A stretch of 59,587 bases of DNA, filler included, from Stramenopiles sp. TOSAG23-6 (lineage: Eukaryota): the NCBI GenBank assembly GCA_900128565.1. It is 2 parts of 2 records of this genome, joined end to end, with 100 filler letters (N's around TTAATTAATTAA, not from the genome) between each part and the next. Parts side by side here need not be neighbours in the genome. Positions count along the whole stretch, not along the records: positions 1 to 29,767 come from LT635968.1; positions 29,868 to 59,587 come from LT635969.1. One strand, given 5' to 3'. Of the stretch, positions 1-59,200 are shown one piece after another. The notes beneath the pieces are model-generated. The model saw only the letters and a list, made by a program, of their open reading frames with translations, did no database searches and had not been told where the DNA came from. How positions within the stretch are numbered: position 1 is the stretch's first letter; each line of letters starts with the position of its first letter. The translations under genes were made by a program, and so were the position numbers.

Positions 1-54
1 TTTATACCTAACAAATTTAAGTTTTTTTTTTTGAAATATTTTTCCAAAATACAT
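1..54 (+). other. Non-canonical intron, 3' part (runs off window start), ends CAT
   Basis: TATACCTAAC branch-like motif, GAAATATTTTTCCAAAATACAT family 3' end. Confidence 0.8.
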
Positions 55-354
55 GAAGTTACGGGTATTCCAAATGGTAAAATATTATGTACTACAATCG
101 ATGAGAATAGAGACATTATGTACGTTTTCATTATGAATTTCAAATTTATCTTTTTCATAGAAAATTTCGTACCTAATGAATTTCGAATTTGAAATATTTC
201 TTCATAATCCATGAAAGATTTGCTTGGTGTAAACCCTCAGAAATTTCGACCAAGTATTCCTAATCTTGTGTATCAATATTCAGTATATTGTAATTATAAT
301 TCAATACGACTTTCACAAAGAAATGAAGAAATTCCAGCTGACCCACAAGTATAA
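55..354 (+). CDS. Last two exons (55-119, 213-354) of an unidentified protein
   Basis: Removing 120-212 gives open frame EVTGIPNGKILCTTIDENRDIM|KDLLGVNPQKF...PQV*; no family recognised. Confidence 0.5.
120..212 (+). other. Non-canonical intron GT-AT (93 nt)
   Basis: AT|GTACGTTTT...TTTCGTACCTAAT...GAAATATTTC...CCAT|G. Confidence 0.75.
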
Positions 355-427
355 TTAAGTATTATTCTCATAAACATAAAAGAAATATCAAAAAAAGTCA
401 TTAGTTTAACATTTATTTTACATTTCA

Positions 428-2183: not shown

Positions 2184-4953
2184 TTATTTTTCTTGCATAA
2201 AATGCTGAAAACCTTTTCGGAGTTTCATGTGTTTCCATCCATCTAGTAGTAGCTCATCATATTTCAACCATCTATTGGAAACATTGCAAAAGGGTTTCTT
2301 ATTCTCATGACATAGACCTTGTGTTTCAGCTTCCTTTACATTACAAGAGCAAGAATCAATTTCAGTGTTATCACGAAATAAGTTTTGTACTTTTGGCACT
2401 GCAATTGCTCTAAGCCAAGTATAATGCTTAAAATGATGATTTTCCCCTATACCATCAACAACTTCTTGTTGAGTCATTAATGCAGCGACGTCGAAGCCAG
2501 CTGCTTCTAAATGCCGTTCTAATGACTCTTCACTAAAACCTACAGAATGAATATCTCCAGGACTCTTCTGTCCACCAAATATATAGTATGAGGAAAGATC
2601 TGCCTTCCATACACCATTGACCAAATTCTTACACAAACCTGTCAATGATGGTACGATGACTTGTAATGTGCCACAACATGGTTGCAACACTCGATGCCAT
2701 TCTGATAGAACAGTTTCAACCTCAGCATGTTTGAAGTGTTCTAAAATGTCCTTTGCAAGTATCTGTGAAACTGAACCATCTGGCAATTCCCACATATTTC
2801 CTACATCAAGACCAACTACAATTTTTCTACGCTTTTGAAGTGTTTCTTTGGTATCATTATTTTTTCCTATACCAATACTATCCCAGAAAATTTTCACTGT
2901 TGGTGGGACACTTTCATAATTTGAGTTTTTTTCTATTCTTGAACCAACCCATTTGTCAATATTGATCCAAGGAGGAGGTAAAAGCATATCTCCAGCACCA
3001 ATATTCAGATAGATATTACTCGGTAAGGTACTTGGCAAATTTCCTAATGCATCATAAAATAACCGACCTCCGTATAATAATGGGCTATTCCCATGTGCTG
3101 CTACATAGTTTTCTTCGTATCCATTATATATAAGGCCACTGGTGGTATTCGAAATATTTTCATTCTTATTTAAATGTAATAAGTATTTTCCGGCTTGATG
3201 TTTCACTGTATCTGCTTTCAAAGTTGTATCTTTTAAGTAAAACTTGGTTATCTCAGATGGAAGCTTTGCCTTCCATTGCCTTGAAAGTTGGCCAAACAAT
3301 TCCGATACTTTTTTCCATTCCATTTCTTCAGTTTTTGTACTACGTTGTAGTGCGGCAATGGATGCATTTTCTAACTCATTTAATGCATACCACAATGTCT
3401 TAACAATGTCAATATTTCCATCAATACTAGAATGATTTTTTTTGTTTGCTTTATTTGTATGGCTCGCACTCGCTGTAGCAGCAGCAAGTAAAGTTGCGGC
3501 ACGGTCAACCGGATCTTGAATATCCTCCCAAAAATATTCCCTTAACCAATGACGAGTATTCAAATGTTTTGCAAAATATTCTGACTCACTCTTGAAATCA
3601 GTAACATCCACATTATTTATAGGATTGAAGTAAGATTTTGCCAGAATCGTAACTTTACTTGGTGCAATCCCAAAAGCCCGACTTAACAATCTTGGCCCAG
3701 TTGCGTTTAATACATCCTTCATATGTGAACTATTAATTGCTTCCACTAAAACGACTTCCCAGAAGGGGTGCCTTGGTGGTGATGCCATTAATGCATTTTG
3801 TACATCTTCATTCAAAGAATTTGCAGATGCAACAATATGAACATTCTCTTGGGACAAATATTTGTAAAAGTTTGCATTGCAGACATAGTCCATGTCTGCG
3901 TAAATTCCACCTATCTTTTGTAAAATAAGGTAACGCGCCAGATCTACTCTCATTATTTGTTTAGGATAACTATCATAAAGTTCTAACATATGCACTGCAT
4001 TATTTTTGACCCAAAGTCTTAAGGAAACATCCGTCCATAATATATGTTTATATTCAGTAGGTGGAAAATATAAATTCCAAGTTTTGTGTGCGTTAATCCA
4101 ATCAGTATGCCAAGTGGATATATTTTCACTGGGAACCATTTGATGAATTATCTTTGGAATGTTGTCAACTTTTTTATTTGGTATGTGTGGCTCTAATTGG
4201 GCGTCAGTGAGAAGTTTTGTGTATGACACTCCCACTTCTTTATTATCCGAAATAATTGTTGTTGCAAGAACAGGAAATAAACGAAGACACTCAACTGATT
4301 CATTTAAACAAACTGTAGAGAAAGCTTTTTTACATTCAATTTGAATGGGGCTCAGATCTTGTTGAGTTTCAATAATTGGGATCGTGTAATGTAAGTTAGA
4401 GGGCGTTGACCAAGAAATACCACGTATTGTGAAAAAATATTTCAAAAAAAAATCGTTAGGTACGAAATTTCGTATGCTGCTTGCAGAATGAATATATAAC
4501 ATCAACCGGTTGCTGTCCTTCCATAATATGCAAAATTCCTAAACTTATCTCATTTTCTTTAGTATCAATGGTACAATGACTTGTCAAAGTTGTAACTTCT
4601 TCTTCAGTGGTAAATGCACAGCGCCTATCAGTGTTTCTAAGAATAAAGTTTCCAGAACCATCAAGCAGAACTTCTGCCACAAATATGATGGGTTTCGTTC
4701 GATTGCACGAAACTCTATCAAAGCTACAAGCATCAATTAGAATATCATTTCTCAATGTCCATGGTAGATCTTGTCTATTTTTCATGAAATCAGAAATGAC
4801 GTCAACTGGTTCAAAGCCTTCATAAATAATAACTGTACCAATATCCTGGCCGTCTATCTCAATCTTTCTCTCATACAACAATTCAGGTATAGAACAAAGT
4901 ACATTTTTTGAAAGCAGGAGTAACACAATAAAACATAGTACTTGAGGCAGCAT
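2184..4953 (-). CDS. Secreted GT32 (Och1/SUR1-like DXD) glycosyltransferase with C-terminal class I methyltransferase-like domain; two exons
   Basis: Signal peptide MLPQVLCFIVLLLLS; IPKIIHQ, DLARY..GGIYADMD, ATGP; LNIGAG...DILEHF...EWHRVLQP. Exon joining across the 4422 intron is uncertain. Confidence 0.7.
4422..4500 (-). other. Non-canonical intron ending CGT; 5' end ambiguous (4500 or 4473)
   Basis: TACGAAATTTCGTACCTAAC...GAAATATTTTTTCACAATACGT|GGT; both candidate 5' ends give phase-0 in-frame joins. Confidence 0.55.
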
Positions 4954-5241: not shown

Positions 5242-8200
5242 ATGGGACAGAAGATAGGCAAATGCCAGCTCCGGCCAGAGTTTCAAAACTCACTAATATT
5301 AGACATGGCTTTATTATCAAAACTTCAAGAAAATATACAGAAATGTAGAAAAGTCAATAGAGGTAAAAGCTATAATTGCACTTCCATAGTTTTCAATGAT
5401 GTCGCTGGGTTCTTCATATCTAATGAATACGATGAGAAGAAAGTGACTTCTCTACTCTTCGAGGTTTTGGATACAGATGGTGATGATACTATTGACTTAT
5501 TGGAATTTTACATCGTTATGGTTTTTTTATCTACTATATCTAGACCCAAGAAAATTGAGTTGATCTTCAATACTTATAATTTCCAGCAAAAGGAGCGCAT
5601 TAGTGTAGCTTTGCTCTTTATAATGATTTCAAGTTTGACTTCAGGCCTATCAAAGCTTGCAGACACTCCGAGTCCAAGTCCAATTGTATGCCAAAGTCAA
5701 ATTCTACTAATATTAGGTTTGAACATCGAACAAAGCAGACGTAAAATGCGCAAGATATTAAATAAAGGAGTTTCGATAGAAATGGTTGCAGAATATATGT
5801 ATAGCTCATCAAGTGTTCAAACTTGGTTTGATTATTTTAATCTCACGGCAACAGGCCGAATTTCAACTGATCGATATGAAGAAACACAAAACGCTTCAGC
5901 AATTGTTAGACAAATTCAACGCCTTTCTCACAAAGTTAGTCTTCTCACAGTAGAAATTAGTGATCGAAGCTCTGAGTTAGTGAATGAAATATGTGAGTAT
6001 CAAAAACAGCAATTAAGACACGAAATAACAATAGATACATTCAGGAAGCGTTCAAAGGAAGTGTTAAAAAATTTGGAGAATGAATTGGAAATGGAAGTAG
6101 CAGACAGAATTTTTTTTAGAGATAAATTGACTCATCTAAAACGAGGAATTAATTTTTCAAAACGAGACATCCTTGAAGTTAAACAAACAATAGAAACATT
6201 GAATAACACAGCGTATATACCAGGCTCGAAACTGAGTAGCACAGTTCAAGCACGTCGGGAAGCAATGAGATTGTTAGAGATTTGGTCTGCTTGTCAAATA
6301 GCCGAACAATTTACTAGACGTCCGACCAATCAGGCTGAATATTTGATCACTGAAGAAAACAGCAACCCTAGACCACCAGTAAAAGGTGTAATTATTCCAC
6401 CTGACGTTAACTTAAAACTAAGCTGGATATATGGGTATGATGGAAGTCTCGGAATGTGGCATAATGTGCGATATAATAAAAAACATGATATTGTATACAC
6501 TGCTGCACAGATAGGTGTAGCGTTAGACAAAGCTGCTTGGTCTCAAAAACATATGATAAGCCATAGTCATAAAATATCTGCATATACAATGCACCCAAAT
6601 AGAATTGATATTGCAACTGGAGAATTTGGCGAATATCCATCTATATTAATATGGTCATCTTTATTCCCAAAGGTTCCAAAAATACATTTAAGTGGATTCC
6701 ATGCTGTTGGTGTTGGCAATCTAGCATTTAGTCCATGTGGAAAACTACTCATTTCAATAGGAAAAGATCCTCTTCAGCATATTGCGGTGTATGAATGGGA
6801 AAAAGAATTAATAGTATTTGCAACACCAACTACATCATGTCGCATAAATGGTGTTATTTCCTGCTCATCTCGGGGCTTCATAACGTACGGCGAAGATCAT
6901 TTGTGCTTTTGGAAAGAAAAACCAACTGCATGTATGTTTTAATTTTTTTTCAATTTTTTGTCTAAATTTTTTTTATAGGAAATTTTGTACCTAACAATTT
7001 TTTTATGATTTTTTTTTGAAATATTTTTCCAAAATACATCTGACATTGAAAAAGAAAGAAATAGGATGAGAATGGAGAGGATAGCACGACGCGCATTACA
7101 TAGTCAAGCAAAAACCAATGCACGTGGGTCGGACTCGGATATATCTCCAATCAATTCTCCAAAGGTTGATCGTTTTAGAAAGCACAATATTTCTACAATA
7201 TCTGGCGGTAGATTCCAAAACTTGGATAATGATAAAAATAATGATAAAGAAACTGCAAAATCCAATAGAAATCCTCAAGATGTAACTGATAATCATACGA
7301 TAAAGTCAACGGAGTTTTATGGGATGTGTGGCCTTTCGCGAATGAAAAGTTCACCCAAAACATTCTATTGTGCTTCAGCAGTATTAGGCCCTGCAATCAA
7401 TGGAACAGTTTTAGAAAACGATAATAATGGTATGAGTATACTGGGATCTTCGTGTGGTAAGCTATGCTTATACCATGGCCAGCACATGCTTTGCTCGATA
7501 AGTGCTCATAAACAATCTCTGGGTGGTTGCACTTCTGTATTTTCATGCTCACATGGAATACTTAGTGGTGGTGGGGATGGTCGCCTTTTTGTATGGAAAT
7601 TAAAACATACAGAAGCGGACGGCTATAAGCTAATTATTCATAAAATGATTGAAGTTGCACAGTTTGGGTGTTTAACGCCATGTGTACAATCGTTGTGCTG
7701 GCATGATAATGGCGACACAATAATTCTTGGTGTTCTCAGTTGTGAAGTGTATGAAATATCCTTACTTCAAAACATTGATATCAATAACGGACCTATAATA
7801 CACTGCCATTCTGCGCGAAATGAAGTTGGGGAAATGTGGGCACTTGCTGTGCACCCGACGTTACCTCGTGCAGCAACGGCTGGAGATGATGGTATCGTAA
7901 GAGTTTGGGATATAAAAACACATAAACAAATAGCTGCTGTGCGAATGCGATGTATGTGTCGTTCGGCATCGTATTCCTCGAAGGGAACATGGTTATGCAT
8001 CGGTTTAGGTGGTCCCGAAGAGATCCGACCAAAATCATCACGTAAAGATGGCGCATTTTGTGTTGTGAACCCAAACAATTTGAAAGTAATATGTGAAAGA
8101 CGTTTCTCACATGCGTGGATATCCGCCGTTACATTTAGTGCAAATGATGAATTTCTTGTCGTGGGCACTGGAAGTGGTGAGATATTCTTACATCGATGTG

Positions 8201-11200
8201 TTATACATGGTATAGGATCTGCAACTGGTATAAAATTGGATTTTCCATTGATACACAAATTCAAAGTTCGAGATTCTGGTGCCGTGCGAAGACTTGACTT
8301 TGACAAAAGAAGTCGCTGGTTACAAGTAGAATGCCGACTTACTTTTGCAAGAAAGCGGTGGGTTGAAAGATTCGATATTAAAAAACTATTACCAGGAGAA
8401 GCCAAGGACAAGAAAAACGTCACGTGGCATACTTGGACTATGACTGTTGGAGATATGTTGGAAGGTATCTACTATGGACAAGTGCCTTTAGAAGTATGTG
8501 CTAAATCAAGATCGGGAAAATTAGTTGCTATAGGAAGTGGCGCTGGAGAAGTAATGCTTGCGCGATTTCCATGTAAGAATTCTGGACCGTTGGTAAAACA
8601 TTTCTGTGGCTCAGTTAGTCACATTTCCAACTTAAAATGGAGTTATGAAGACAAGTATCTAATGGTTTCCGGGGGCGATGATAAATGTGTATTCCAATAC
8701 ACTACACAGATTGATGATGCCGATCCAAATGCAGAAGGAAGGCGACAGAGGCTTGAGCTTCTTCACGAAGACCAAAAGAAATTAAATTTAGAATCCAAGA
8801 AGGTCTTCCGACAGACACGAGATATGTTGGCGCCTTTCATCAAAAAGAAAAATGCTCTTATTTCGCGCCAAGAAATTCTTGTAAAAGAAATANAAAGCCT
8901 TAAAGAACAAGCAAGTAAGTTCAAAGCTATTGGAAAGGAACCACTGTACATTACAAATATGTTGTTTAATGCGCGAAAAGAGTTGAAAGAGTTAAATCCG
9001 CCGTTGTCTTCGATACGTAGACGGCTTGCAGAACATACCGTAAAACTCAAAGGTAAAGATAGTCTTTATGTAGAATTGCAAACGAAACAAGCAAAGCTCA
9101 AGAGAGATATTGAAGAAATCTCAGGATATTCTGCAGATGCAATTATTGGGGGGGTTCTTATTGATAAGACTGATTCTTTAGATAATACTGAAGAAGCGAC
9201 AGCTGGTGCTTTAAGAGTTGCGTATTGGGCCAACACCAAAGAAAACTTATTGGATACCGAAGACTTCATCGGGGATCGTACAACTGCAGCTCCAAAAAGT
9301 ACACTTGAATTATCCTGGGTTTATGGGTTTGATGNTAGAGGAGTTCAAAACAATCTGATGTATGTGGGAACCAATCAAATTTTGTACACAATAGCCCGAG
9401 CCATTGTAATTTATGATGTTGTAACACACACACAGCGTCGCTTTGGCGAACACCATTTCGACATACTTAGTATTGCTTCACACCCCAATAAAGAACTTAT
9501 CGCGTCGGGAGAGCGGGGGGATATCCCCATGATAAAAATCTGGCGAATTGATGATCTTAGTGTTGTACAGACTATTGTAGGCTATCATCGAAAAGGTATC
9601 TCACATTTGTGCTTTTCCAAACAAGAGGGTCGATATTTACTCACCGTTGGTGAAGATTTTTGTCATTGCATTGCTATGTACGATTGGAAAGTTGGCGAAG
9701 TTCTTTGTCATGTAAAAGGTGGGGTTGAGACTATATATGCGGCTATATTCATGCCAGATACTTGTGGCTTCATCCAATGTGGGTATAAACATATTAAAGT
9801 GCATAAATTTCATGGTCGTCACGTAGAAACGAAACGTGTTTTATTTCATGGCAAAGGCGACCTTCAGCGGTTCTTGTGTGTATGTTTTTCCGGATCATAT
9901 CCAATCATTGGTACCGAAGATGGCCACTTGTATCAATTACGGAGTGATTCCCGGAATTTATGGAAGGTTGTCAAAGCACATATAGGTGCAGTGAACTGTA
10001 TACGAGGGTACACCAATTGTGTTATTAGTGGAGGAAACGATGGTCTTGTAAAAATTTGGTCAACAACGCTTGTTCTCCAGATAACATTGGATTTGAATGC
10101 TCTCGATCAAAATGTTGACGATACTTGTGACATAGCTGACGCATATAGTGGTGACGAAGCTACATCAAGTGATGATGTAAATGCATGTACAGACGATGAA
10201 CCCTTGTTAGCCGACGATTCAAAATTTAAAGGTCAACTTTTAGGGAATAATTGGAAAAAGGTCCTAAATGAACGAGCGCGTCGAAAGCAAGAAGCAAAAA
10301 CATCAACCCAACAAAGAGAGAAAGAGAGAAGGGAGCGTTCTGAAAGACAGGTTGATTTGTATGAAAAACGAAACAAAAAACAAATAAGAGAACTTGAGCG
10401 ACAAAAGCGTAAAGAAATAAAATTGTCTGAAAAGTTGAAGCGTAAAGAAGCCCGAGCACAGCGGAGGGCTTTAAAGGCGACTAAGAAAGCATTGAAACAA
10501 TCTAATTTAGATGATAATGCAGATGATGAAGCAACTGATATTTCTAGTGATCCCGAGGATACCGACGACATTACATCCGATTCTGATTCCGATTTGTCTA
10601 ATTTGTCATCTTCATCAGATGAAAATGCCGATGGCGGAGAAAAAAAAATGACTATCAGTAATACGGTGAAAGATCCAGAAGGGCCTGAAAAGTGGCAATT
10701 GTGTCTTCCTAGTAGTTTTAGGAAGATACGCGCATCAAAATTGCGTGAAATGGATTTTAAGGACTCAGGAGGGAACTTTGAAGGTGCCATTGAGTGTGAT
10801 TTATCTGGGGAAAAACTTGCTAACGAATATTTCGATTTCGAAACGAAGCTTAAGGAAATGGAGAATACGGGGAATGATAGTGAAAGCGAAAAAGAAGAAG
10901 ATGCCGAATTTTGGTACACTCGAATTAACAATGATGGTAAAGGTCGAGCATTCATCCTATCTTCGCACGCATATAATCTAGCATTTCCTACCAAAGCAAC
11001 AGATCTGAAAAAACAAAACTTTTTTAGAACTTCTTTGACTCGTATTGTGCAATCTATTCCTGGAAAAGTCACTGCTAAGTATAAAGAAATTAGCATCGAC
11101 GAGGACGCTGAATTTCTTTGTCCTCATTCAAATGAAGATCTCAAAGAAGAATTCTTTTATCATGCTTGGCTGAGAGACGATACACCAATAGATATATCAA

Positions 11201-14200
11201 TAAGTGCATTTGGAGAAGAATATTCAGACGGGGATCTATTGAAATTAGCTGAATTTAATATCGCCGAAACAAACTTTGAGAAAGACAAAGATTCAGATAC
11301 TAGAAGTTTATCAAGAACATCATCGCCTACAAATTTGGATAATTCTAAGCCCAATGAAAATGTCGATCTGGCATCTAAGAATAGCCCAGAAGATCCAAAG
11401 TTTGGTGTTGATTTTCCAGAATTACCAGATTTTATAGATAAGAATGATGTTAACGAAATTAACTTTGAAACTGAACATGAAGACAAGAATGAACTATCAA
11501 GTAGTGGAAATTATGAATTATATACATTGAAAAATCATCCAGATGCAAACACGCGCGAATGGCATTCAATATTACGTGAAGGTGGTGATGTTCGAGCGAT
11601 GATTGCTGAAAAAGCGCGAATGGATGCAATTGCAGACGCAATTCGTTTAGCATCGGAAGCCGATCAAAATATATTCGCAGGAGTTGACGATGACATGGTA
11701 AGCTCGGGTGAAGGGAAACTGTACAACTTCAAGACAGAGTTTCGCGCCGAAGGTGATTATCGTACAATGCAGCTATTAAATCTAGAAAACACTAATAAAA
11801 ACAAGAATGAGAATGAGTTTGAACGATTGTTAGGTAATCATAAGGCCAATGATAATAGTGACATTTCTTATGACTCTAGCTCTAACGACAGTATGGCAAG
11901 TTCCGGTGTTGAAAAACCATTCTGTATCCGTGATGGAGTACATTTGAATGGTGATAGTGATGAAGAAAATGTATATGGCACTGTCATGAGCGATTCATCT
12001 GCGTACGACAGTAATTGGTCTGGTCCTGGTGCAATTTCAGATAGCAGTGGTTTGTTAGATTTATTTGAGCTAAAGGATGGTTTATCGCCATTTGCTGAAG
12101 GTCGGTTAGCTCGGACCCAAAGACAAATCAGAAATGGAATTCTTGATGATGCGTATATACCAGGTGTATTAAATCATCCTAAACACATGCGAAGATTCGA
12201 CCCTAGACGCGTAGAAATTTTTGACCAGGAAGTTGTTTTGGCTAAATGTATTAAAGATTATGATTGGATGGTGGAGGGCGATATCGATGAAGTATTGGTG
12301 GGCACAATGGTGCTCGTTCTGGATAACAACTTTGATGCTCGTCCTGGTCCTTGCAGTCCCGATGATAAATGGATGGTACGTGATATCCACAATTCCAAAA
12401 ATGTTGGCACAGCCTTCGGTCATTGTTTCGAAGTAATTTCCAAGAGACCATTAGGAAAGTCACGAATGGGTTGCTTACAAAAGTTTTACGCAGAATATGC
12501 TCCAAGTCGTAAAGGTTTATTAACAGTAGAAAATACTCTATTGCGATATCAAAACAAGGAACAAAAGCTCTTCAACTTATTACATAAAAAGTATGGCAGT
12601 GCCCCAGAGGAATTAATTCTACCAATGTTCGAAGCTCCAAAATCTGAGGATTTATCAATTGGTATGCTTGTTGAAGTCAATGTCAGAGGTAAAGGCAAAT
12701 GGTTCAAAGGATTTATTCGTCGTCGTAGAGGTCGCCAACGATTTGATGTAGAACTAAAGGATGGCGATCCAGACTTAATTTTATATGCTAGCGACCTATA
12801 TAGTGCCGGAGAAGACGATGGAAGTTTATCTGATGAAACTCTTAATCAATCTGAAGATTCCGACGAATGGACTTCTGTAGGAACCATAGATGACGATGAA
12901 GTGAAGGTGATTGAACAAAAAGAAGTAAAGGTACCAAAATTTCTTCAATTAGCGAAACAAACTCAAAATAGAACCCCGACTAAACCAATTCTTGTGAAAA
13001 CAAAAGTGTCAAAGAGAACAAAGGACAACCTTTTTAGACATAAAATTGCATCACTATGTTGGGATGGAGGTGAAAAGGTCGTTGTCGGTACACTCAGTGG
13101 ACAAGTAAGAGAAGTATGGGTCAACGACGATAAAAAGACAATCGATGTTAATAAGAATCCAGTTGTACATGGTCAATGGCAATGGGATTGGGTCAGAAGG
13201 ATAACTACGGACAGCTATGATATGCATAAGCCTATTGCAATGTGCTTTCGTAATCGTCATAATGAGTTCTTTACAGTCGACGGGGCTTTACTTTCTGTCT
13301 ATACGTTTGAACATCATTTGGCTCCATTAAAAAGGAATAAAAGAAGAAAAGCAGTTTACATGAGACAGAATGGAAAACTACGATTATCTGAGTCATGTCG
13401 TTCTACCCCTGACGGAAAGCTTGTAGCTGTTGGGCACACAGGAATATTTGGTATTGGATTCTCAACATGCACACTATATGACACAGATACTTTGAAACCA
13501 ATGTACTTCTTTCGTGACACTGAAAGAAGCAACCTTAGCACAACGACTTGTATTCAGTTCAGTAAAGACGGGAAATTTATAGCAACTGGTATGAGCAATG
13601 GATATGTACACATCAGGCAAGTTGAAGAATTTTATGAAAACAAAACAAAACGGTTCGTACTAAAATGTTCAATAAATATGTCAGAAAATCACGAACGAAT
13701 TGAGCAAATGGATTGGTCCACTTCAAATGCTAACTTAAGAGCTACAGACAAACTAGGGAATTTAAGATATGCTAATTTGAAAAATTTAGAAACTGCAGAT
13801 TTTATATGGCAGAAAGACACTCTTGCAATTGTAGCTCAATCTACATCGTGGGTGACATTCACCTGTAGGGATTCATTTTGTAACATAAAACGACATAGTA
13901 CAAACAGACTAACATTTGACGGAAATCATATACCAACGACAGGTTGCAAAACAATGAAACATAATAAGAGACAATATATTGCTGCTGGTGCACCAGGTGG
14001 ATCATTGCTGTTTATGAGCTATCCTTGGATCAGGGGGAGAGCAAATTATAAATATCATTTACATACTTCAGGAATTCGTCAAATGGAATTTTCTTTTGAT
14101 GGCAAATCTCTTGCTGTTTGCGGAGGAATAGATAGAGCTATTTCGTTATGGTCAAAAGAGTATGTGGAACAAATGTTTGAGTGGGGAATTTCATTAGATT

Positions 14201-17200
14201 TTACACAATACTTATTAGAAAAAGATGCGTGGTATATGAGCCCAGAAGAAAATTCATTCGTCTCTAAATCAATGTTAGTAGAAGATGGAAAATTGCGAAA
14301 AGCAGGAATTCCTTTAAACATGTCTTTAGTATGGTGTTATTCCCCAGTTTGCTCCGATGTTTTCTACACACAAAATCATGAAGTTGTATTCTATTCAGAA
14401 TCAGTCGCTGTGGTATACAACAAGAAAAGACACCAACAGAAGTTTTTCGAGAAACATATGGCTGATATTTCGTGCATTGCTCGATCTAACAAAGGTGATG
14501 TTGTGGCCACAGGCGACGTGTATCATACCCCAATGATTCGTGTATGGAATAGCATGACAATGCAAGAGTCATGCGCATTAAAGTTAGATACAAAAGAAGG
14601 CGTAGATTGCATCGCCTTCAGTAAGGACGATTTGTCGTTGGCTGTAATCGGAAAAGATGCGGAGCATACATTAAGTATCTTCCGATGTAATGGCCCACAC
14701 TGGGGATTTGGAGGAAATCTTTTAGCATCACACGGAATTGGTCCCGCACCATGTATATCTGTTAGCTTTACTCCATGGTATGATTTGCCAATTATGACTG
14801 TTTCGTTAGACACCGTTAAGTTCTGGCAATTACGAGGGCGGAATCTGCGTTGGATATTTTCTATAGATGAAGATGAGGAAAACTTGAAAAAGCAACAAGA
14901 AGTAGATATTGAAATTGGTGATGGTCTTCCTACAAATATTCGATGGTTAGGAATGAATGACAATAATGACCTAGAAGTTGTCGATGGTGTACAAAAAATG
15001 TACAGATCTGACGGAAATGAACGTGCTGTAACACCTATCACCATCCTACGCACAGCAACTGAAGATAATAACACCAAAACTCAGGACGGCGAAACTGATG
15101 ATACAAGTCCAGAATACATTGCAGCGCAAATGAGAGACACATGCACACTGTTATTTGGTAAAGTTAATTCAGAAACAAAAAACGATGAAAGTAAAAACAA
15201 AGCACACAGGATTAACTCTGAAAAGAAAAAAAACGAATACGACTTTATACCTCTTCAAGGAGCTCAGTTGTTACCTATGACGAATAATGATTCTAAGTCA
15301 AGTGAAGATGACAATAAAAAGGGCGCGAAGAAGTCACGTCGTAAATCTTTATCAGGCGCCATAGTCCACGGGATTGATAGTGAAATATTAAACCCATTTG
15401 CATCTATTCAAGGGAAACATCGGAGTTCGATTGAAAAATTAGCAAAATCGAAAAAACAAAATTGGATAGCACCACCTGGATTAGGTGTCTGCTTGATTAG
15501 TAATCTTCGTTACATGGAAAATGAGATTGATGGGCTAATTTCTCTGAAAGGTCTTTCTAGTAATGTAGCTGGTGGAGTTGGCTCATTTGAGATAGGTTTT
15601 GGTGAAAGCTTATCAAGCGATAAAGAATATAAATTACAAAACGATAAAGATTCTTCAGCATCTTCTAGTTCAGATGAAATGGAATATGTAAATGAAGAAA
15701 ATAAGGATTTGGTTCTTCAACAAAGGAATGTTTTAGATACTTTGCGAAATAAAAACAAACCAGTTAGGCTTATTCAGCGAACAGACAAGCCGGGCAAGAG
15801 AAAACTAAAAATACATACTGGGCTAAGCATTGATACAGATTTAAACGAAGGATTAATTAGCCCGCCAGGGACTTTGAGTCCGTCAAGACCATCTACAAAT
15901 TCAAGCTTGGTAAGCCTACGACAGATGAGTTCTGTGTTGGAGAGTGACCGCTTTTCAAGAGACGGAAAAAAAAATAGTAGGTTCAGTTTTCAGCCAGATT
16001 CTCGAAGAAGCAGCGCTAAATCAGGAAAACGAAACAGTGGTGTACAAATGAGTTCCCCACAGTCATCTGAAGGAAGTCGGCGCCAGTCCGTTCAGTCGTC
16101 AAATAAGAGGAACAATCGTCGAATGAGTAAAGATCTCACTAATATAGGAGGAAACACATTGAAGCAAAACCTAAAGAATATAACAACTACAGCTGGGCAA
16201 ATAAATGAAAATACTTCATCAAACAGGCGGATGAGTAAGACTGGCAAGATGAGAAGATTGAGTAAAATCTCAGGTGGGCGTAGATTAAGTCAGTCAATAA
16301 AAATGAAAAATGTAAAAAGAAATACCAGAAGGTTGAGTAAAGAGTTGACTACTATGGCGAATGAAAGGCGAATGAGCAAAAAGGAAAGTACACGATATAT
16401 TCGACGCTTGAGTGAATCAGAATCAAAGCGAGTAAATTCGTTGGATAAAAATGGAATGCGAAGATTAAGCCGAGTTTGTGACTTGGGCTCTTATCAAGGA
16501 AGAAGTTCCCGTCAAAGTCACAGGCTTAGCTTTGTTAGAAAAGACTCGCGTGCGAGTAAGGCTCTGAAACGCATGAGTAGCATAAGTAACTCTTACGGCG
16601 ATGACAATGTTGTCGAGCAAGCATCCCATACTGCGGATATTCTAGACGAAGATGACACTGCAGTAGCCGCCCAGATACTGTGTATTACTCAATTTGGTGA
16701 ATTCATGATAGGTGGTGACGTAGATGGGTTTCTTGTTATATTTGAGTACGAGATCATAACAGAAAGAGTCAATGCGCATAATGATGAAATACTTTGTTTG
16801 CATTCAACTTCCATGGGCCTCGCAAGTGGCAGTACCGATGGTATAGTCAAACTTTGGAACCATCGCCTGATAATGACCCATCAGTATAATATGTATCAAA
16901 TGCCTAGTTCATGTATACGAAGTATCTTTTGGAACACCGAAGCGGATTCAATTCTGGCAGCGATGGAGGACGGTAAAGTTGTTGAGGTTACCATTCATAG
17001 TGGAACAGTTACAGAAATCATGGATGCTCACCATGATGATGTCATTATTGATTTAGCGACACACCCAGTAAACCCCCTGCTTGTGAGTATCGGTGCTGAT
17101 AGACGGATGAACATTATACATACCCAAAACCAAGGAATCATAAGAAAAACACAATTTGATACAGACCCAACTGCAGTGTGTTGGTTCCCCAAAAGCAATT

Positions 17201-18012
17201 TTATTGCCGTTGGCTTCAAAGAGGAATTTAGTTCTCAAAAAGCAACGAACCCATGTTGGGCAATATGTAGTGGAGTAAATCTTTCCATTTGTTTTGTCGG
17301 GGTGCAGACAAAAGAGACTATAACGTCACTATGTATATCACCCGATGAAAAAACTCTCGTTGCAATGACCAAAAAAAATAAGATTGTTTTATATTCAACA
17401 AGTCCTCAGAATAATTCATTGGTATCGAACATAACATGTAATTTGATCAGATGTATCGATGTTACGACAGTCTTACCTATCCATCATATGGGATTCCGAC
17501 CGGACGGAAGAATTCTACAATTTTTTCGTGCCCACGAATCAGGGAAGGCTCGAATACAAAGTGTTATTGACCTAGATGAAACGGATGAAGCGTTAAAAGA
17601 GTTTGATGCTGATAGCGGTGCTGCTTCAGAAGATTGGAGAGGAGTCTGGATTAGTATCGAAGCAGCAAATGACGCATTGCTGGTATTTACACGACCATCG
17701 CATCAAAATCCATCTTATACAAAACTTGTTGACGCAAGCCATGGGACTGATAAAGAATTGAACTTTAGAGGATTCAACATTGATCGTTATAAATGTAAAG
17801 CAAAGCTTGGATTTCCCCATGCTTCCGTCGCAAAGTATGATAGCTCAGGCAATGTTCTTTTCATTACAAATATGAATCGCCCGTCTTTGATGCAATATAG
17901 ACTGAAGGTTGTAGATTTAAGAACACAAAATAAAAAATCTGCTGGCCCAAAACGAGTTGAAATGCGAACTAGTATTGTGTATGGAGCTGAACGAGATGGT
18001 GTCAAATGGTAA
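5242..18012 (+). CDS. ~4220-aa EML5/6-like HELP-WD40 protein with N-terminal EF-hand region; exons 5242-6931 and 7040-18012
   Basis: MGQ start, DTDGDDTIDLLEF EF-hand, three HELP-like motifs (LKLSWIYGYDG, LELSWVYGFD, MSLVWCYSP) followed by WD40 repeats; intron removal joins KPTA|SDIEK in frame. Confidence 0.85.
6932..7039 (+). other. Non-canonical intron GT-AT (108 nt)
   Basis: GCAT|GTATGT...TGTACCTAAC...AAAATACAT|CT; the next three downstream AGs would each create a stop codon. Confidence 0.88.
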
Positions 18013-35173: not shown

Positions 35174-35207
35174 TAACAATTAAACTTTATTATATACAAA
35201 TTTTCTA

Positions 35208-41200: not shown

Positions 41201-44200
41201 AATGGGCTTCAGTAGTTGATTCTGATACATTTACTAAAGTCCCTGTATATGATGCTCCATTAGGGGTATCACCTGTTTCAAGCAACCAAATACGACCTTG
41301 GGATGTAATAAGCATTTGTGGCTCATTTGAGATACTCCCAGTTTTATTCACTTCATCAGCAATTACTGCAACATCGCCGTCTTTTGTAACACATACCTTC
41401 CAATTGCCATGATACGGCGTCCGAAACATTATTGCTTCCATTGTCTCGTCCCTACATTCAGCTTCAGAAGGCCTATCTCTACGATGCGCACCTGCCGTTG
41501 CAACAACTGATTGTGATGCTATGAGTTTCCCTGATTCAGACCCAGCAGAGCGTACCCAGAGACCAAAGTCGCGCCTAAAAGACATTTTAGTAATTCCATT
41601 TCGTTTGAAAGCTAACTCACGAGATTGAGTCGCAACAACTGTCCACACATCATTTGAACCTGCAGCAAGCGGGTCACTTGGTCCTGAATCTTTGGACGAA
41701 GAACCTTGAGTGTTTCCCAATTGATTCGAAAAAGGATTTCCCGAACTGGCAAGCTGCCGGTGCATTGCATAATGTTGGTCTTTTGTCAATGACTTTGTAT
41801 ACAAAATTCGTCGGTTATGGCGTTGAATTAAATCACGAGGATGAATATTTTCCATAATATCACTGTGCTCACTCATTTCGCCGTTTACTGAAACTTCCAA
41901 TGTTTGTACACGACGGCGGCTTTTGCATGCCGATGTTGGACAAACTACACATTGCAATGCTTTGAATCTCTCATTTACTAGTGTCTCGGACGAGTCACCA
42001 GCTTTAGTTGTCGCTATGAATGAAAGAGCTGAATAATTACTCCCAGTACATCCTGGGTTAGATTGGTCAGCACAATCGTTGCCCTGCATCGCTTTTCTCG
42101 CCTTTACTTCAATAGATTTCTCGTCGAAAGGAACAAAAAGGGCAACGCTAGACCTTAAACTTGCTTTCATTGTGTCATCAAAATTAGCATAAGGCATCTG
42201 AAATAAACAAGTAAATTCAACAATTTTAATATTGGAGTCGACAACTGTAATTTGAACAGAGTTCATGGCCAAAATATTACTATTATGGTCAAAAGCCTTC
42301 GCTGTTACAGACAGTTGGCCCGTTTTTGGGCCAAAAAGAATTGTTCCTTCTTCAAATGAAAATGATACATTTCCTGCTATATCTTGTGCTGTATCACCCG
42401 GCGACCCTGTACCATCTGAGCGACCAAGAGTCACTGTCAATTTACCATTATTATTAGATCTGTCTTTTATTGCAAGACCTTTTGCATCAATCTTAACACC
42501 ACTATCATCCGGATATTGACCACCTGGAATGGTGAACTCAATTGCGCTACCCACCCGCAATGATACTGGTGTCGTAAATGAGAAATCCAAAGCAGGTTTT
42601 GATTTCTGTACGACATTCTTCTGCTTGACATTAAAATCTCCTAATGGGGGTACTAAAATAAAATCAAATTTACCTGAAAACATTACTTCGGTGTCCTTCT
42701 TTATGGCAAGAATACAATGCATTGTCCCGGCGTACTCGCCTAACTTAATGACCCCTTCGGGAATAATGAGAGTAGCATCACCCGCTTTGCTCTGTTCAGA
42801 TGAAACTGTCAATTTTAAAGTATGATCTGAAAAATTTGCAGAATCAATATTTTCAGAATCAATTTGAAATAGAGTATCTGTGATACTTTCGTCATTCGGA
42901 TGTTTTATAACAAATCCATTTTTTGTAGTTTTTCTACTGATTCTCGACCCAACTACTGCCTCAGGAATAAATATTTCAATAATCCATGTAGACTTCACTA
43001 CACTAGGTGTGGTAAAAGTAATTTCCATCGATGGTTCTGTCTTAATTATTAAAGCTTCGGGTACAACGGAAACGCCAGATAGTTTTTCAGCCGCCACAGT
43101 AATATTACCCACTTGCCATTTAAATGATGAATTTCCTACAATACTCATACATAGAATCCAATCTCCGCCTTTTTCGAGATTAAATTTCACGTTAATGCTA
43201 TTTTTCTCGCTATTTACTTCGTTATTTATAGAAACTGGGTTAATGTAGTCCACATGTTTATTTGTATCATCAAGCACCGAAGCATCATTTTTATTTGCTG
43301 TGCTTGTGGAACATGTAACATTACTGCCAGCTTGTAATGGTAATGCAATTAATAGAGAATTTTGCGTCAGGGCTACACCTTCGATATTAATATCAAAAAG
43401 TGTACCCTTGGTACCAGTGAACTGCTGGTTCAGAGCCGGTCCAGCAACAACTACTTTGCCAACAAGAAACATCTGTTTTTCAGTTTCAGATCGTATAAAG
43501 CAAACTCTGTATATACCAGGCTTTTCCACAGAAAATGAAGACCACATTAGACTATTTCCAATAATAGTTGGTATTGCATTGATGCCCTTAACGACATCTG
43601 TAATAAAAGTGGTGATACCAAAAACACATGCATCGGCACGGGTTAATTTTAACATAAAACCGTCACCACCATACGTAGCCCAATTGCTTTGATTCAGATC
43701 GTTACCCGTGAGTGTATACTTTTTTACTTCGTTTGGCGTCGTTTGGAAACTTTGGTTAATATGTAATCCCGAAGCCTGAACTTTGCCAATTTTTTCATAT
43801 TTTGTGGTTTCATCAGACTGAAAACAAAGTGAGAATACATAAGTATTAGAACTAAGCGGAATTAACACATTATACCATGTCAGTTGCGATTTGTCACTTT
43901 GAAGTTGGGGTGTAACTGAATTAGTTATTCCTGCTACTTCCACAACATTTCCACCTTCACAATTGTCTTGTTCCAAGACAAGTTTAATTTTCGAAATGTT
44001 TTTTAGATTAATTCCCTTGATATAAAGATTTCCAGGAATACCGGCATCCAGTCGAAATACTTGTCCAACAAAAGGGCCGGCTACAACTAAATCGCCAACT
44101 TTCATAGAATAATCAGGAAGAGTTTTATTGGGAGCAAAGCACAATGAATAATCGCCACTAATATCTGCTTTAACAGAACCCCAAAGTAAACGATCTCCAC

Positions 44201-53200: not shown

Positions 53201-56200
53201 AATTGCGGAACGTTAAATTTTCGCCACTAAGTTGAATATCATCAACAACATAACTAATGCCATTATTTGATTCTTCAGAGTTCCACGACTTGGCCTTACC
53301 TTGATTCATTTTTGTACAAATATAATCTGCTATTTCCAGGTTAAAACCATCATCGCATACAGGACCCCAGATACTACTTCCACTCAATTTGGCTTCTAGT
53401 AAATTATTTGAATTATGATTTATTTGAAATTGAATGCCGGCATCACTAGACCTAGAAGACCATTGTGAATGATGATCATCATCATAATATCCAGCGGCGC
53501 AGCTTTCTGGCATCTTATCAGAACCAGCACAATATAATCCATTACCAGTACATGCTTTACAAGGTGTCATTGGTGATAAATCATGGTCATATGTTCCTTC
53601 TCGACATATCAATTTGTCTTCGCACCCACCAGCACAATAATACCCTGAAGGACAAGGAATACATTGATCGTCTTGATAGTAAGTACCTATACCACAATAT
53701 TCAGGAACTGCATCACCACCTTTACATACGACTCCACAGTGATTGCAAATGTCGCTTTCACAGGAAGTTTTTGATGATCGGTCGTGGTCCCATGTATTTG
53801 CTTCGCATGGTGTTGCTTGATTGCTTCCTGCAAGACACTCTGTCCCTATAGGACATTCTAATGGTTTAGATGTACCACCGTTACAGAAAAATCCTTCGCT
53901 ACATGTTTCACATTCTGTAAGAGTACTTTCGACTATAGATGTACTACCATACTTGTTACCTTTACAAGTAAGCAACAGACCCTGGGAACTTGTGCATTTT
54001 GTCTCATAATCGAACGAGCAATCTTGAGGCCAAACACCCCCCTCATTGCACTCTACACTACCAAATGTTTCAATCGTACACCTGTTGTAACAGTGTTCTC
54101 TTCTCCCTGGATTATTCTCGACGTCTTGTTCTCCATCATCGCCAAAACAAGAATCTTCTCCCCATTTCTTACCCCTACAAGTTTCATCTGCAACATCAAA
54201 AAAGCATTTATTATCGCCACCACATCCATGTCTTATTCCCTGACCACACCATATACAATCAGCATCATTATCACAGTCAGTTGGAGTATCGTCACAAAAG
54301 TTATTTTTACCAATAGAGAAATTTTCTACCCCTTCGCTAAAACCCAGTGCATGACACAAAACATCTGCCGTTGAATTTGTAATCCCACCACCACATACAA
54401 TTGATTTTGTTACAGGAGAATAACTTGGATATGTTACATGTAGCGTTCCACATCGTCCATTATTTTGATCATCATCCGAGCAGTAACATCGCCCATTTGC
54501 TCTATCATCATCTGAACACAAAATGCCACCCAAATCAAATTTGAAATTACATGGTTCTCCATCATCACAACCCTTTTTTGCTGCATTCATCCTTTCTATT
54601 GAATTTGGCCATTGGGAATATAAATGTCCGCTCAACTTTGCATAATAGAGCGATCCATTGTAAACTAAAGGTTGACAAATGGAATTTTGATGATCTAATT
54701 GTAATGTAACATCAGGGTCTTTTCCCGTACAATCTGACTGATCACTAAAAGTGAAATCGATCGTACCAGTAACATTCGTTGAGTGAAGATTGATGGTCAA
54801 TCCATACCTACTTGTTTTTATTTTGCTCACGCTCTTTTCAAGCGGAAAGTCGTCAGTTACCTGAGAGCATGTGCCTACAAAATCAGTATGATAAAAAGTA
54901 AATTTCTCACACTTATTATCTGAAAATATTTCTAACTGATATGAGATTGGCATAGTAAAGTCGTCCCAGCTTACTATCTGATATGATGTTTCATAACACA
55001 CATCGCAGTTACCCCATCTAGGATTAGAGTTTGCATCTGTCGCTGTACAGTCTTTGTCTAGACAACACCTTTTAGTACCTTGTGGTGCCCCATCTGAAGT
55101 ACATGCATTGTAGGTTTTGTCGTTGTATGTAAAAGGAAAATTACACACTTCTTTATGTTCACCAACACCATCACCATCACCATCACCGCCACTCGTAATA
55201 CAAGTTGTAGTAAATATCTCTTTGATATTTGGAGTTATTGCGTCATGATCCCAAGTTCCAGGCGGACAAGATGTGACGTGAGATTTATCAACAACGCCAC
55301 CATCACAATAATTACCAGCCTCACACGCTATACAAGGAGTTAAACTTGATGAGTCGTGGTCATATGTCCCTTTTTTGCAACCTGATGAAAGCTTGGATTT
55401 CCCACCTAGACAAGTGATTCCCTTATTGTTATCATCATTGCACTGAACACATGGTGTTGTTGTACTTAGCGGTTCTATTTGGGCATTCGTATAACTAAAA
55501 GAACTATTTTTCTGTAAGAAAACGAGACTATTTGGAAATGGTTCGCAAGATTCTTCTGTTATCTCATTCAAATGTACACTGATCTTTTGACAATCAACTC
55601 CTTCTTGGAGATTTTCGTCTTTTTTAAGTCCTCTTTCCTTCAACCGAAAAGTTCTGAATGAAAGATCAATTTCATACATCTGTCCCGCGGCTACATCAGA
55701 GGGATTATTACTACTATCATTAACCGGGGATATGTCGGTTGCATTATACAAAACACAAGAAAAGCTCAATGTATTTTCCTCTTCCTCTATTATTGTTACC
55801 TCAAACCAGAAAGATAAACACTCTCTGTTCTCGATACAACTCTTACCACAGTCTGTAATTGCATCAGGTATTTTTGTACCATTTGTTATTGATATACTCT
55901 TGATTTTTATGGGTGAATCTTCTTCAGGCTTCGCCATTTCCGACAGATTATAGGGAGTCATATCATAGTGTATCCCTTCGTCTGCATCTGACGAATAATT
56001 TTCAGAACTAATAACATTTGAACTCTCTTTGAGCAAACAGCATGAACCATCATTATGAACAAACACACTTCTGCAATAATCCGTAGCAAGATCATTAATA
56101 TTGTTCCGCGCACATCGTGCAACACAAGACTCAGGGTCAATCTTATTATCGTCGTATGATTCTTTTTCATATAAACACGACTTTTGAAGTCTACAATTTT

Positions 56201-59200
56201 TGAGATTAATAGTAGCATCTGTACAGTTCTGAGATTTGTGACACTCCGGGTTTTGACTACAATCATTATCCTGAGTATTATTATTACACTCATTTAATTC
56301 AGCAATGCATGCACATGTACCTACTTTTGGAGGAGAGTTAGGCAAATAGCATGTATCTCCTATAAGAAAATTTTTAACATCTTGAGAAGAAATGTTTAAA
56401 GATGTTTTAACTTGTGGAACTCTCATCGAATAGAAATGTATTTTGGAAAAATATTTCAAAAAAAATTATAAAAAAATTGTTAGGTACAAAATTTCATACG
56501 AAAAAAAAATCGAAATTGAAAAAAAATAAAACATACATGAGTGGTACTTGTATCCGAATCTGTCTTGGCAGTCATACCTGGAATAGTTGATGAAAAGTAC
56601 AGATAACACTTGTGGTCATTTATGTCTATGAAAAATCCTCTGCAACCCGCTTCATCAAGACAGCGATTTCCACAACTCCATTCATCCGCACCGTCATGAA
56701 TATTTTGTGATGGATTCCAGTCGGTACTATTCTGAAAATAATCAAATGTAGTTGTAACCGGCATGACTAACTCATTGCGTTGTTCCCAGAGAGGTACTAT
56801 TGGTATTGGTAAAACATTGACACCGTTACAGTAAGTGCTTTTGCACTCTTCTACACATGTTTCTCGCGTATGCTGCTCTTTGACCATACATGTACGACTA
56901 TCAGATATAAATACTGCATTTATATTGTGTTCTATTCTACCATTATCCATGGTTGTATTGAGAGAAGTATCTTCCTGTAAAGATGGTTTTATATTTCCTG
57001 TTGTCCACTTCCAACCTTGTTCAATCAAATCTTGGTGATGTTTTGTAGTAATTAATCTACATGTATCATCGGGAGGTCTCCTTGGTGTTGGTGTCCATTT
57101 GTTGTCAATCTTTTCCCAGATGTTTGAACATCCAATATTGCTAATTCCCAAATATTCCTTTGCTGTATTACAACTTGAGTAATTGATTTTTTGATACCCA
57201 AGTCCAGTCATTAGAGCGTAACATGATGATAACATACAACCAGGACATGATGATGATGTACAATGTTCATAGAGTCTCCGAAGATCCTTTGCAGTACACG
57301 GATCATTCCATGTATCTATCCAAGTTACAGGGCGATTCCAAAACCTTACATTTGTAATAGTACCCCGAAAATTATTAGTCTTTTCGCCATCACTTCCAAT
57401 CCTCACAATGTTTCTCATTTTTTTTATCGGGATCTCATAATTATCTTTCACTTGAGAGTACAGTTGCCCATCACGCCACAATTCAAATATATTGCAACTA
57501 CTTGGGATTGTGTCTTTACAGTTTTCCGCGAATTTATCCGCGGAACATCCACTGCATAGACAATTGTCGCACATCAGAGTTCTAACATGACCTTGCCCCC
57601 CTAGACAATCTTGAGGACATTCATTATTATCTTTTTTCTCTGGATAAACTCTAAGTAAATAATTGTGTGATTGTTTTTCTGGAAATGCTGGTGTTGATTG
57701 TGCACCACCACTACCTAAATCGCTTTTCGAAAAAATAATACCTCCTCTAAAATAGCGACAACTCGTAGTAGCTTCACAAGCATCTTTTTTTGTTACACTT
57801 GCATCATCATCATCAGACCAAACTGTGTCACAACCAGTAGATGTATCATCTATAGGAAGACACTGCTCATCCGCAAAATTTGATGGAGGTATGTAACATT
57901 GACACTCTTTTTGAGTACCCTGAGGGCTACCTTGAAAGTTTTCTTGTTTGCACGAAACTTCTCCTTGAGGAGGACTTAACCATTCGGTCCATCCTTCATT
58001 GGAACCAAATCGAATATATCCTCCAGAACATTTACACATCGCAGATTCAGATTCGTCAGATTCAGATTCGTCGGCACATTTAGTAGTAAATTGACTCGTT
58101 GCAGATTCACCATTTGAGATAAAAAGTGCAGCTTCAGTAGATAACTCTGTTCGTACTTGTAGTCGTATCTGATCAAGTTTTGAATTAGATAATTCAAAAA
58201 TGACACCCACATTAGAAGTATCATCATGAACTACGTTGGCTGCAAAGGCAAAGCCATCTGTACTTCCACTTTCAAAGGCTGATGTATCTGACAATGATTC
58301 CTGTATATCACTACTCACAAAACCTACACTACTCGTTATACCAAAATAATCCGAGCTAGCATCAAGTGGTTCACTCGTTTCATTAAAAGTACCACCAAAA
58401 CTTGCAAGAAAAGCTCGATTTCGACAACTTGTTTGTGCACCTTTAGTAAAAGTATACGCTTGACAATATGCATCATTTTCACAAAGACTTTTGCAGTTAT
58501 CCTCACTTTCAGTTCCTTCTAATCCTCGAGGCAAGCGCATCGAATCTCCATCTCCATCTCCATATTCTATTGCACATGCTCCATCATAACAACTATCTCC
58601 TATGCACTTCCGTTTTCTAACGAAATGTGTTGACGCAACAGGATCAGTAGATGTACACTTATAACCAGACGTTTCAAATTCAAGACGATACGACGCATCA
58701 TGATCCCATTGTCCAAGTGGACAAATTTCGGGACTTGTACGATTCGCCGGACAGTGGGTACCTGGTTCAGTGCATGGTTCACATTTAGTCGAAGGGTCCG
58801 AGTCATGATCTATATAACCGACTTGACAAGAGACGATGTTATTTGTGCCTCCTTCACAGTACCTTCCAGCAGAACATGTATAGCATCTATTATAATATCG
58901 GTACGTCCCGGCTTCACAGTATAAAGCTGGTTTATTTTGTCCTTGACAGGCTAGTTCTGTCGGACATTGTACACACACAGTCGCTGGATCCGAGTCATCA
59001 TCGTAAAAACCAGATGGACACCACTGCAACGTTTCACCATTACAATATGATCCAATCGGGCATCGACCAAAGAGATTCGCACCCCCAGCGCACCACCAGC
59101 CAAGCCTTTTTTCACACGTGACGCATTCAGTCGCCGGATTCAAATCTTTATCTTCTGTTCCTTGAGGACAATAACTCGTCATTGTACTCTTGGGCCCACA

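Follow-up and report, generated by a model that had tools for sequence, protein, structure and literature searches.

The window analysed here, a stretch of 59,587 nucleotides (nt), consists of two contigs of a marine eukaryote (Stramenopiles sp. TOSAG23-6) joined at 29768-29867, and contains a family of short, T-rich elements that interrupt protein-coding genes. Judged from the sequence, these elements are best explained, with a probability of about 0.6, as putative spliceosomal introns of an introner-like family with a non-AG 3' end, YAU (YAT in the DNA; Y, pyrimidine). All evidence on the elements was obtained from this one repeat family in 59 kb. An earlier note on the same DNA, referred to below as the original prediction, spoke of "every intron" in the window, which means this one family.

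The motif TACCTAAC was found 31 times in the window against 1.02 occurrences expected, a count reached in 0 of 100 shuffles. It lies in a conserved unit of about 100 nt of the form GTATGTTTTA .. T-rich .. CGTACGAAATTTTGTACCTAAC .. TTTTGAAATATTTTTCCAAAATACAT. Thirty complete elements were catalogued together with four truncated or diverged copies (3-54, 29691-29767, 29868-29921 and 30347-30448). These figures replace the count of 33 in the original prediction, whose statement that all copies are co-oriented with their host genes was confirmed. A profile made from the clear copies matched solely in the direction in which the flanking frames are read, and the complete copies were co-oriented with these frames in 30 of 30 cases (p about 1e-9). 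The elements are 85-258 nt long with 18% GC and 52% T. The best pairs of copies are 80-90% identical, and the median identity is 63% compared with 54% for shuffled copies; sub-families have internal blocks in common. The elements at 24194-24367, 26986-27148, 27452-27630 and 33950-34207 either are duplicated internally in tandem, with two branch motifs, or consist of copies, nested or in tandem, that make up one longer intron; these arrangements could be real or collapse/expansion artefacts of assembly. The host genes include those for sulfite oxidase, HACL2/ILVBL, MFSD5, and PAN2-like, EML-like and MSS51-like proteins. As in introners, many related, sense-oriented copies occur in unrelated genes, each acting as a putative intron, and we read the elements as one mobile, introner-like family that multiplied recently.

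Exact removal of the elements

Boundaries were numbered from register 0, the register of the original prediction, 5' /RTAYGT ... YAT/ 3' (R, purine; a slash outside parentheses and brackets marks a boundary or junction in motifs and peptides). In register 0, removal joined the flanks of 29 of 30 elements into an open frame; with the 3' boundary displaced 1 or 2 nt to either side, it did so for just 8-12 of 30 (p=3e-13 for 29/30 against one third). In the list used for this count 34114-34207 was entered separately; it was later replaced by the composite 33950-34207, the removal of which is also open and matches homologues. Phases 0, 1 and 2 were represented 11, 9 and 10 times and the element lengths are not multiples of three; therefore the elements are not translated.

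Junctions that could be compared with homologous proteins were gap-free in 12 of 12 cases (seven in HACL2/ILVBL, four in MFSD5 and one in sulfite oxidase). All seven in HACL2/ILVBL matched the database protein P0123, which is 89% identical in the query exon, and tblastn opened a gap of exactly 40 codons at element 27833-27952 and one of exactly 36 codons at 28051-28158. The four in MFSD5 matched nine homologues, and that in sulfite oxidase, AWA/WTLW, agreed with its homologues. The original prediction had listed AWA/WTLW, WII/WGDG, NDAC/WTQI and WEENY/G as motifs restored by exact removal, and all of them were restored here and match homologues. Frames and homologues together support the conclusion that the elements would have to be removed exactly at these junctions.

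The 5' dinucleotides in register 0 were GT (23), AT (3), GC (2), GA (1) and GG (1), and the 3' dinucleotides AT (28) and GT (2), n=30 in each case; the terminal AG of U2-type introns was found in none. The last base was T in 30/30, position -3 was C (24) or T (6), and YAT was present in 28/30.

Putative splice signals and alternative readings

Each copy carries its own putative signals: a yeast-type (G/A)TAYGT with TTT after it, a branch motif of the CTAAC type (TACCTAAC), a T-rich tract and a YAT/ end. At the 5' site A was found at +3 in 29/30, G at +5 in 26/30 and T at +6 in 30/30, in agreement with the GT hexamer of U2-type introns; GTATGT is the textbook 5' site of this type in yeast. Conservation reaches +9, giving (G/A)TAYGTTTT with G as the first base in 27 copies and A in 3 (n=30). 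CTAAC or CTAAT was present in 28 of 30 copies and a weaker variant in the other two, as expected of a U2-type CTRAY branch with a pyrimidine-rich tract after it. From the branch A to the 3' end there are 33-56 nt (median 43), and the boundary YAT/ is placed inside the conserved motif T(T/C)CA(C/A)AATA(C/T)AT. The pre-mRNA would be cut before the 5' G or A and after the final U, the last intron base being U where almost every known intron has G. We infer removal at the RNA level by a spliceosome that, in this organism, tolerates YAU at its second step, probably through a catalytic core that reads the last base differently and not through a fold of the intron.

A U12-like introner expansion, handled by a transformed minor (U12-type) spliceosome tolerant of A or G as first base and of non-AG/non-AC ends, is an unlikely explanation with several features in its favour. 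The first base (G 27, A 3) and the conservation to +9 resemble Physarum [G/A]TATC[C/T]TTT, TACCTAAC agrees at 6 of 8 positions with the U12 branch consensus TCCTTAAC in the form quoted for Physarum in the available part of the source, and the AT terminus recalls the minor spliceosome. However, where U12 introns by consensus have C (+5) and C/T (+6), the elements have G in 26/30 and T in 30/30, and the 5' motif RTATCCTT was not found; CTAAC fits the U2-type CTRAY. In Physarum, as far as the available part of the preprint describes it, GT-AT introns form 17% of an intron minority of 0.8%, carry RTATC[C/T]TTT and have the branch 10-12 nt from the 3' end (bioRxiv 10.1101/2020.10.12.336362), compared with 33-56 nt for the branch A here.

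Excision at the DNA level, as happens with the internal eliminated sequences of ciliates, or removal from RNA by a structure-specific enzyme other than the spliceosome was considered very improbable. Such routes are favoured by the short direct repeat at the boundaries and by complementary ends: together with the last two exon bases, the consensus ends form a 9-bp interrupted helix with 81% of cells paired. No compensatory changes and no covariation were found in this helix, however, and shuffled copies paired equally (81.1%). RNAalifold on 17 copies gave 0 pairs and no conserved fold. The 5' site and branch motif would be superfluous for either route, and the element is retained in the assembled DNA and in a second assembly (P0391, below). 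Co-orientation with transcription, needless for a strand-symmetric process, was strict (30/30), which argues for RNA-level, strand-specific removal and against DNA excision. The structure-guided splicing route offered in the original prediction was abandoned on the same grounds, namely 0 RNAalifold pairs and end complementarity without covariation.

In 19 of 30 elements the upstream exon ends like the element itself (AT 18, GT 1). This 2-nt direct repeat means that GT..AT, TG..CA and AT..AC give the same mRNA, so the boundary is ambiguous for those copies. The repeat was present in 10/10 best-scoring copies versus 9/20 others (Fisher p=0.004), and in copies that have it registers -2 to 0 are equivalent. 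Both points speak for shifted boundaries, the elements then being AT-AC (or TG-CA) introns. Such introns are nevertheless hardly probable, as copies lacking the repeat distinguish between the registers. With register -2 (AT-AC) a stop arises at 28051, an invariant G is lost at 33247 (9/9 homologues), FG becomes LC at 34299 and L becomes M at 28316; the 3' dinucleotide of this register (AC, AT, TT, TC) is also less uniform than the AT of register 0. At 33247 and 34299 register -1 breaks down, as does register +1 at 26642 and at 27833. Assuming a single cutting register for all copies, counted from the conserved motifs, register 0 alone fits all junctions.

Canonical alternatives were searched within 15 nt on either side of the 5' end and 30 nt on either side of the 3' end of 29 elements. 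An in-frame, stop-free GT/GC..AG pair existed in 19/29 and none in 10/29 (including 26823, 27258, 28051 and 34299). Each of the 19 alternatives removes 1-12 codons or adds 3, and none reproduces a homologue-validated junction. In 24/30 the segment from the branch motif to the 3' end was free of AG, and the first AG at least 8 nt past the branch A kept the frame in 10/30, the chance level. A usable AG is shown here, by reading frames and homologues, to be absent from the elements. Ordinary GT-AG splicing nearby, with proteins differing by small insertions or deletions, would suit the 19 alternatives and the public annotation, which chose such sites, but is scarcely credible given the 10 elements that offer none, the chance-level framing, and the deletion of conserved WGDGS or CYHL, or the three residues put into AWAWTLW, at validated junctions.

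The public protein models of the locus illustrate this. P0001 (20115-22085, minus strand) uses the GT..AG pair of element 20353 (+4/-5), drops five conserved segments and inserts CTT. P0122 (27300-28530, plus) lacks an 18-residue segment and CYHLD, while P0241 (32642-35170, plus) and P0392 (22293-23279, plus) translate into elements. These four models are wrong because the pipeline assumed GT-AG. The statement in the original prediction that the nearest AGs give stops or frameshifts was too strong: alternatives exist in 19/29, and the GT..AG pair at 20353 (+4/-5) keeps the frame, with three residues gained. What holds is that every in-frame alternative removes or adds codons. That no GT-AG intron exists and all introns end in AT or GT holds likewise for the 30 family elements (28 AT, 2 GT); it has to be qualified for a candidate non-family intron at 34491-34625 (plus; cag/GTATAAGT..CTCTAAC..). 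This candidate is readable as GT..AT (to 34619, 129 nt) or GT..AG (to 34625, 135 nt), is in frame in both forms and open if read through, has 27% GC, and is absent from MFSD5 homologues.

A search for introns of canonical appearance (GT..branch..YAG, low GC, open junction) gave 14 matches, 12 of which overlapped family elements. The match at 34569-34652 lies inside or beside the candidate at 34491. That at 43818-43875 (58 nt) lies in a continuous giant open reading frame (ORF) and was rejected, its removal giving a frameshift. Among low-GC islands without elements, 34502-34654 was the only intron-like one.

Several points weigh against spliceosomal introns ending in YAU. In 27/30 copies another YAT stands downstream of the branch, ahead of the 3' end that is used, so "first YAT after the branch" is not the rule and distance or the longer 3' motif must help. 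Seven of 30 elements start with AT, GC, GA or GG instead of GT, and the motifs may be conserved simply because the copies share a recent ancestor. The organism may use AG elsewhere, as the candidate at 34491 is readable as GT-AG, and two copies (23236-23338 and 26439-26547) are on probable assembly joins. No spliced, near-identical protein was found among database proteins. P0391, a 99%-identical RibB protein from another assembly (2,980-nt contig), contains an identical 15-residue read-through into the same element; it derives from unspliced DNA or RNA, so that the same site carries the element in another, slightly divergent genome or in an unspliced transcript. Finally, we know of no major spliceosome that takes U as the last intron base by rule.

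Exact junctions, co-orientation pointing to the RNA level, a spliceosomal-looking 5' site and branch, and the non-AG end are retained from the interpretation first proposed for this DNA. The structure route is not, and the lineage-wide re-tuned spliceosome extrapolates from one family in 59 kb. The single mobile family, the ambiguity caused by the 2-nt repeat, the U12-like motif features and the GT-AG-readable candidate had been overlooked.

Insertion sites, host genes and probable assembly joins

The upstream exon ends in AT in 18/30 copies (background 0.094, p=9e-12) and has T at -1 in 24/30; the next exon begins with G in 20/30 (p=2e-7). The flanks AT/../G mirror the canonical protosplice site AG/../G with T for G. 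Flanks and repeat fit a 2-bp AT target duplication or a strong preference for AT/ targets. The copy at 28051 is placed in TGT/TGG, where an AT target is impossible; this site and the exclusive sense orientation would fit reverse splicing. The family may have spread by reverse splicing or with a 2-bp AT target duplication. Beyond about 9 interrupted bases, the element ends showed no clear terminal inverted repeat. Nucleotide pattern scans of metagenome, genome and viral contigs gave no related loci or empty sites: the 16-nt core had 117 single matches in metagenome contigs, 0/117 of them element-like, and 35 single matches in viral contigs (pattern match alone), and the 22-nt 3' motif had 0 matches in genome contigs and 0 in viral contigs.

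A wider proposal is tentative, and we regard it as possible but doubtful. In a MAST-3-like lineage the rule of the major spliceosome would have changed from YAG to YAU and the protosplice site from AG/G to AT/G. The change would have been spread by a reverse-splicing introner, with co-evolution of the core that reads the last base (the G(+1) partner, Prp8, U6 and U2) and perhaps with U2AF35 lost or changed.

GC in the window is 26-43%, and the DNA is eukaryotic nuclear with tightly packed genes. Comparison of the window with Rfam gave 0 matches. Genes were recognised for RCHY1-like, glycosyltransferase/methyltransferase, EML-like giant, sulfite oxidase, RibB(A) and PAN2-like UCH proteins, and further for HACL2/ILVBL, a USP fragment, MSS51-like and MFSD5-like proteins, and a cysteine-rich ORF of >8,100 codons. 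Three public proteins bear source names, GSMAST32.ASY1.ANO1.2005 for P0001,.2007 for P0122 and.2006 for P0392; these and the unnamed P0241 are identical to window exons wherever aligned. We take the window to be the public GSMAST32 locus or a near-identical assembly of it, and the label GSMAST32 presumably stands for MAST-3, a marine stramenopile group. Sequencing runs listed as containing the stretch are seawater metagenomes and small runs from a single organism.

The copies are given below with strand and boundaries, exon bases in lower case. On the first contig, 3-54 (plus; ends ..CCAAAATACAT) holds the 3' part of an element truncated at the window start and is followed by 120-212 (plus; at/GTACGT..ATCCAT/g), the removal of which gives an open frame. 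The element at 4422-4506 (minus; cg/GTTGAT..ATACGT/g) has a short, divergent 5' part and is one of the two ending in GT. That at 6932-7039 (plus; at/GTATGT..ATACAT/c) belongs to the EML-like giant gene, whose ORF (7040-18009, 3,667 codons) is associated with this one element only. Next come 18821-18911 (minus; at/GTATGT..AGACAT/g), 19327-19417 (minus; at/GTACGT..ATACAT/g; branch motif TACCTAAT) and the diverged copy in sulfite oxidase, 20353-20476 (minus; at/GTACGT..GTACAT/g), whose junction AWA/WTLW is gap-free against 6 homologues.

All copies from 23236 to 28439 are on the plus strand. The element at 23236-23338 (tc/ATACGT..ATATAT/g) is the sole out-of-frame copy and probably marks the assembly join of a RibBA intron with a PAN2-like intron: the last ~60 residues of RibBA are absent after 23236, and the gene runs into the middle of the PAN2-like gene. 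It is followed by 23481-23582 (at/GTATGT..ATATAT/g), 24194-24367 (at/GTATGT..ATACAT/t; branch region duplicated internally), 24861-24961 (gt/GTATGT..ATACGT/g; ends in GT, as does the upstream exon) and the diverged 25720-25841 (gt/GTATTT..ATACAT/c; branch motif TTTCTAAC). At 26439-26547 (at/GTATGT..ATTTAT/t) a second join of unrelated introns through the repeat is probable. HACL2/ILVBL homology begins exactly at the 3' end of this element, at about residue 446, after the PAN2-like UCH domain, and the N-terminal 445 residues of HACL2 were found nowhere in the window.

Within HACL2/ILVBL the further copies are 26642-26760 (at/ATACGT..ATACAT/t; junction KVD/LTLNSD), 26823-26921 (at/GCATGT..ATACAT/g; SDPA/MF), 26986-27148 (gt/GTACGT..ATACAT/g; internal tandem duplication, two branch motifs), 27258-27361 (aa/GAACGT..ATATAT/g), 27452-27630 (at/GTATGT..ATACAT/g; internal duplication, LDL/CYHLD), 27833-27952 (at/GTATGT..ATACAT/a; VWII/WGDG), 28051-28158 (tt/GGATGT..ATACAT/g; NDAC/WTQ) and 28316-28439 (tt/GTATGT..ATACAT/g; VISL/AQ). 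Element density is very uneven, with 9 elements in 2 kb of HACL2/ILVBL versus one in each giant gene.

Three copies on the minus strand follow at 28928-29056 (gt/GTACAT..CTACAT/t), which holds AACCCTAACCCTAACCC, a short CCCTAA-type (telomere-type) repeat, at 29200-29357 (at/GTATGT..ATACAT/g) and at 29480-29590 (at/GTATGT..ATATAT/a). The 3' parts at 29691-29767 (minus; ends ..AAAATGTAT) and 29868-29921 (plus; ends ..CCAAAATACAT) are cut by the contig ends at the N spacer. This spacer (29768-29867) reads N44-TTAATTAATTAA-N44 and looks like an artificial one between two contigs; both contig ends at the spacer are inside element copies, as expected if the repeat breaks assemblies.

On the second contig a diverged partial copy of uncertain status (30347-30448, minus; GTATTT..TACCTAAC..GTACAT) lies downstream of the MSS51-like ORF, and the MSS51-like gene contains 30867-30977 (minus; at/GTACGT..ATACAT/g). 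The MFSD5-like gene (plus) contains 33247-33342 (gg/GCACGT..ACACAT/g; VAG/QIS, with G kept in 9/9 homologues), 33458-33565 (at/GTATAT..ATTCAT/g; WEENY/GK), 33708-33800 (tc/GTATGT..ATACAT/g; branch motif GTACTTAA), the composite intron 33950-34207 made of about three element copies (at/ATATGT..ATATAT/a; EASMY/MFVVMW) and 34299-34400 (tg/GTACGT..CAACAT/g; IPFG/DLFSCY). The cysteine-rich gene (35211-59587, minus) has its sole element at 56436-56536 (minus; at/GTATGT..ATACAT/t). It comprises 7,085 + 1,035 codons around this element, runs off the window end, and gave weak Laminin_G_3 and PAN matches.

Significance and comparison with known systems

Few signals of eukaryotic gene expression are as constant as the terminal AG. 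If the elements are introns ending in YAU, they would represent a rare change to a core splicing rule and a natural experiment on how the last base is read in the second step, in an abundant free-living marine lineage, and would bear on the spread of mobile introns. Standard GT-AG gene finders mis-predict such genes, as seen in the four visibly wrong public models, and proteomes, completeness scores and functional inferences for the group may be biased. In the available parts of the literature searched, including PMC5778133, PMC12614181, PMC8163842 and 10.64898/2026.04.17.719054 (main text; supplements could hold intron statistics), no MAST-3 non-canonical introns or introners and no published GT-AT-dominated genome were found.

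The elements are like the introners or introner-like elements of Micromonas, Aureococcus, fungi and dinoflagellates in that related sense copies occur in unrelated genes with their own splice signals and a short boundary repeat. Aureococcus introners, in the available part of the source, have canonical splicing motifs and direct repeats together with terminal inverted repeats of constant length (PMC7789003). In contrast to the canonical borders of described introners, 0/30 elements here end in AG, the repeat is 2 nt in 19/30, and a terminal inverted repeat is unclear.

Introns of Amoebophrya are described in the same part of that source as having no clear dinucleotide signature, inverted repeats of 8-20 nt and predicted hairpins (PMC7789003). 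To that extent they are comparable in being repeated intronic elements of a marine organism with non-GT-AG borders, direct repeats overlapping the boundaries and complementary ends. The present family differs in its uniform borders (GT 23/30, AT 28/30), its canonical-looking 5' site and branch, and the lack of a predicted fold; stable end pairing with variable borders, of the Amoebophrya/euglenid type, was not found. Those U12-type introns of Physarum that are non-canonical, as covered by the available part of the preprint cited above, are alike in their GT-AT or AT-AT borders, G or A as first base, extended 5' motif and massive expansion. They differ from the elements, which have G at +5 and the branch about 43 nt from the 3' end.

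Ciliate internal eliminated sequences are bounded by TA and free in orientation, whereas the elements are co-oriented in 30/30 and bounded by AT. In Fritillaria-type tunicate introns GT and AG are both lost, giving an AG-AC/AG-AT pattern; unlike these, the elements have a yeast-like 5' site and differ in the last base only. Yeast-type U2 introns have the form GTATGT ... TACTAAC ... YAG. The 5' hexamer, the CTAAC branch core and Y at -3 are the same in the elements, which depart from them in the extra C of the branch motif (TACCTAAC), in T as the last base, and in a 3' site that is not the first YAT after the branch.

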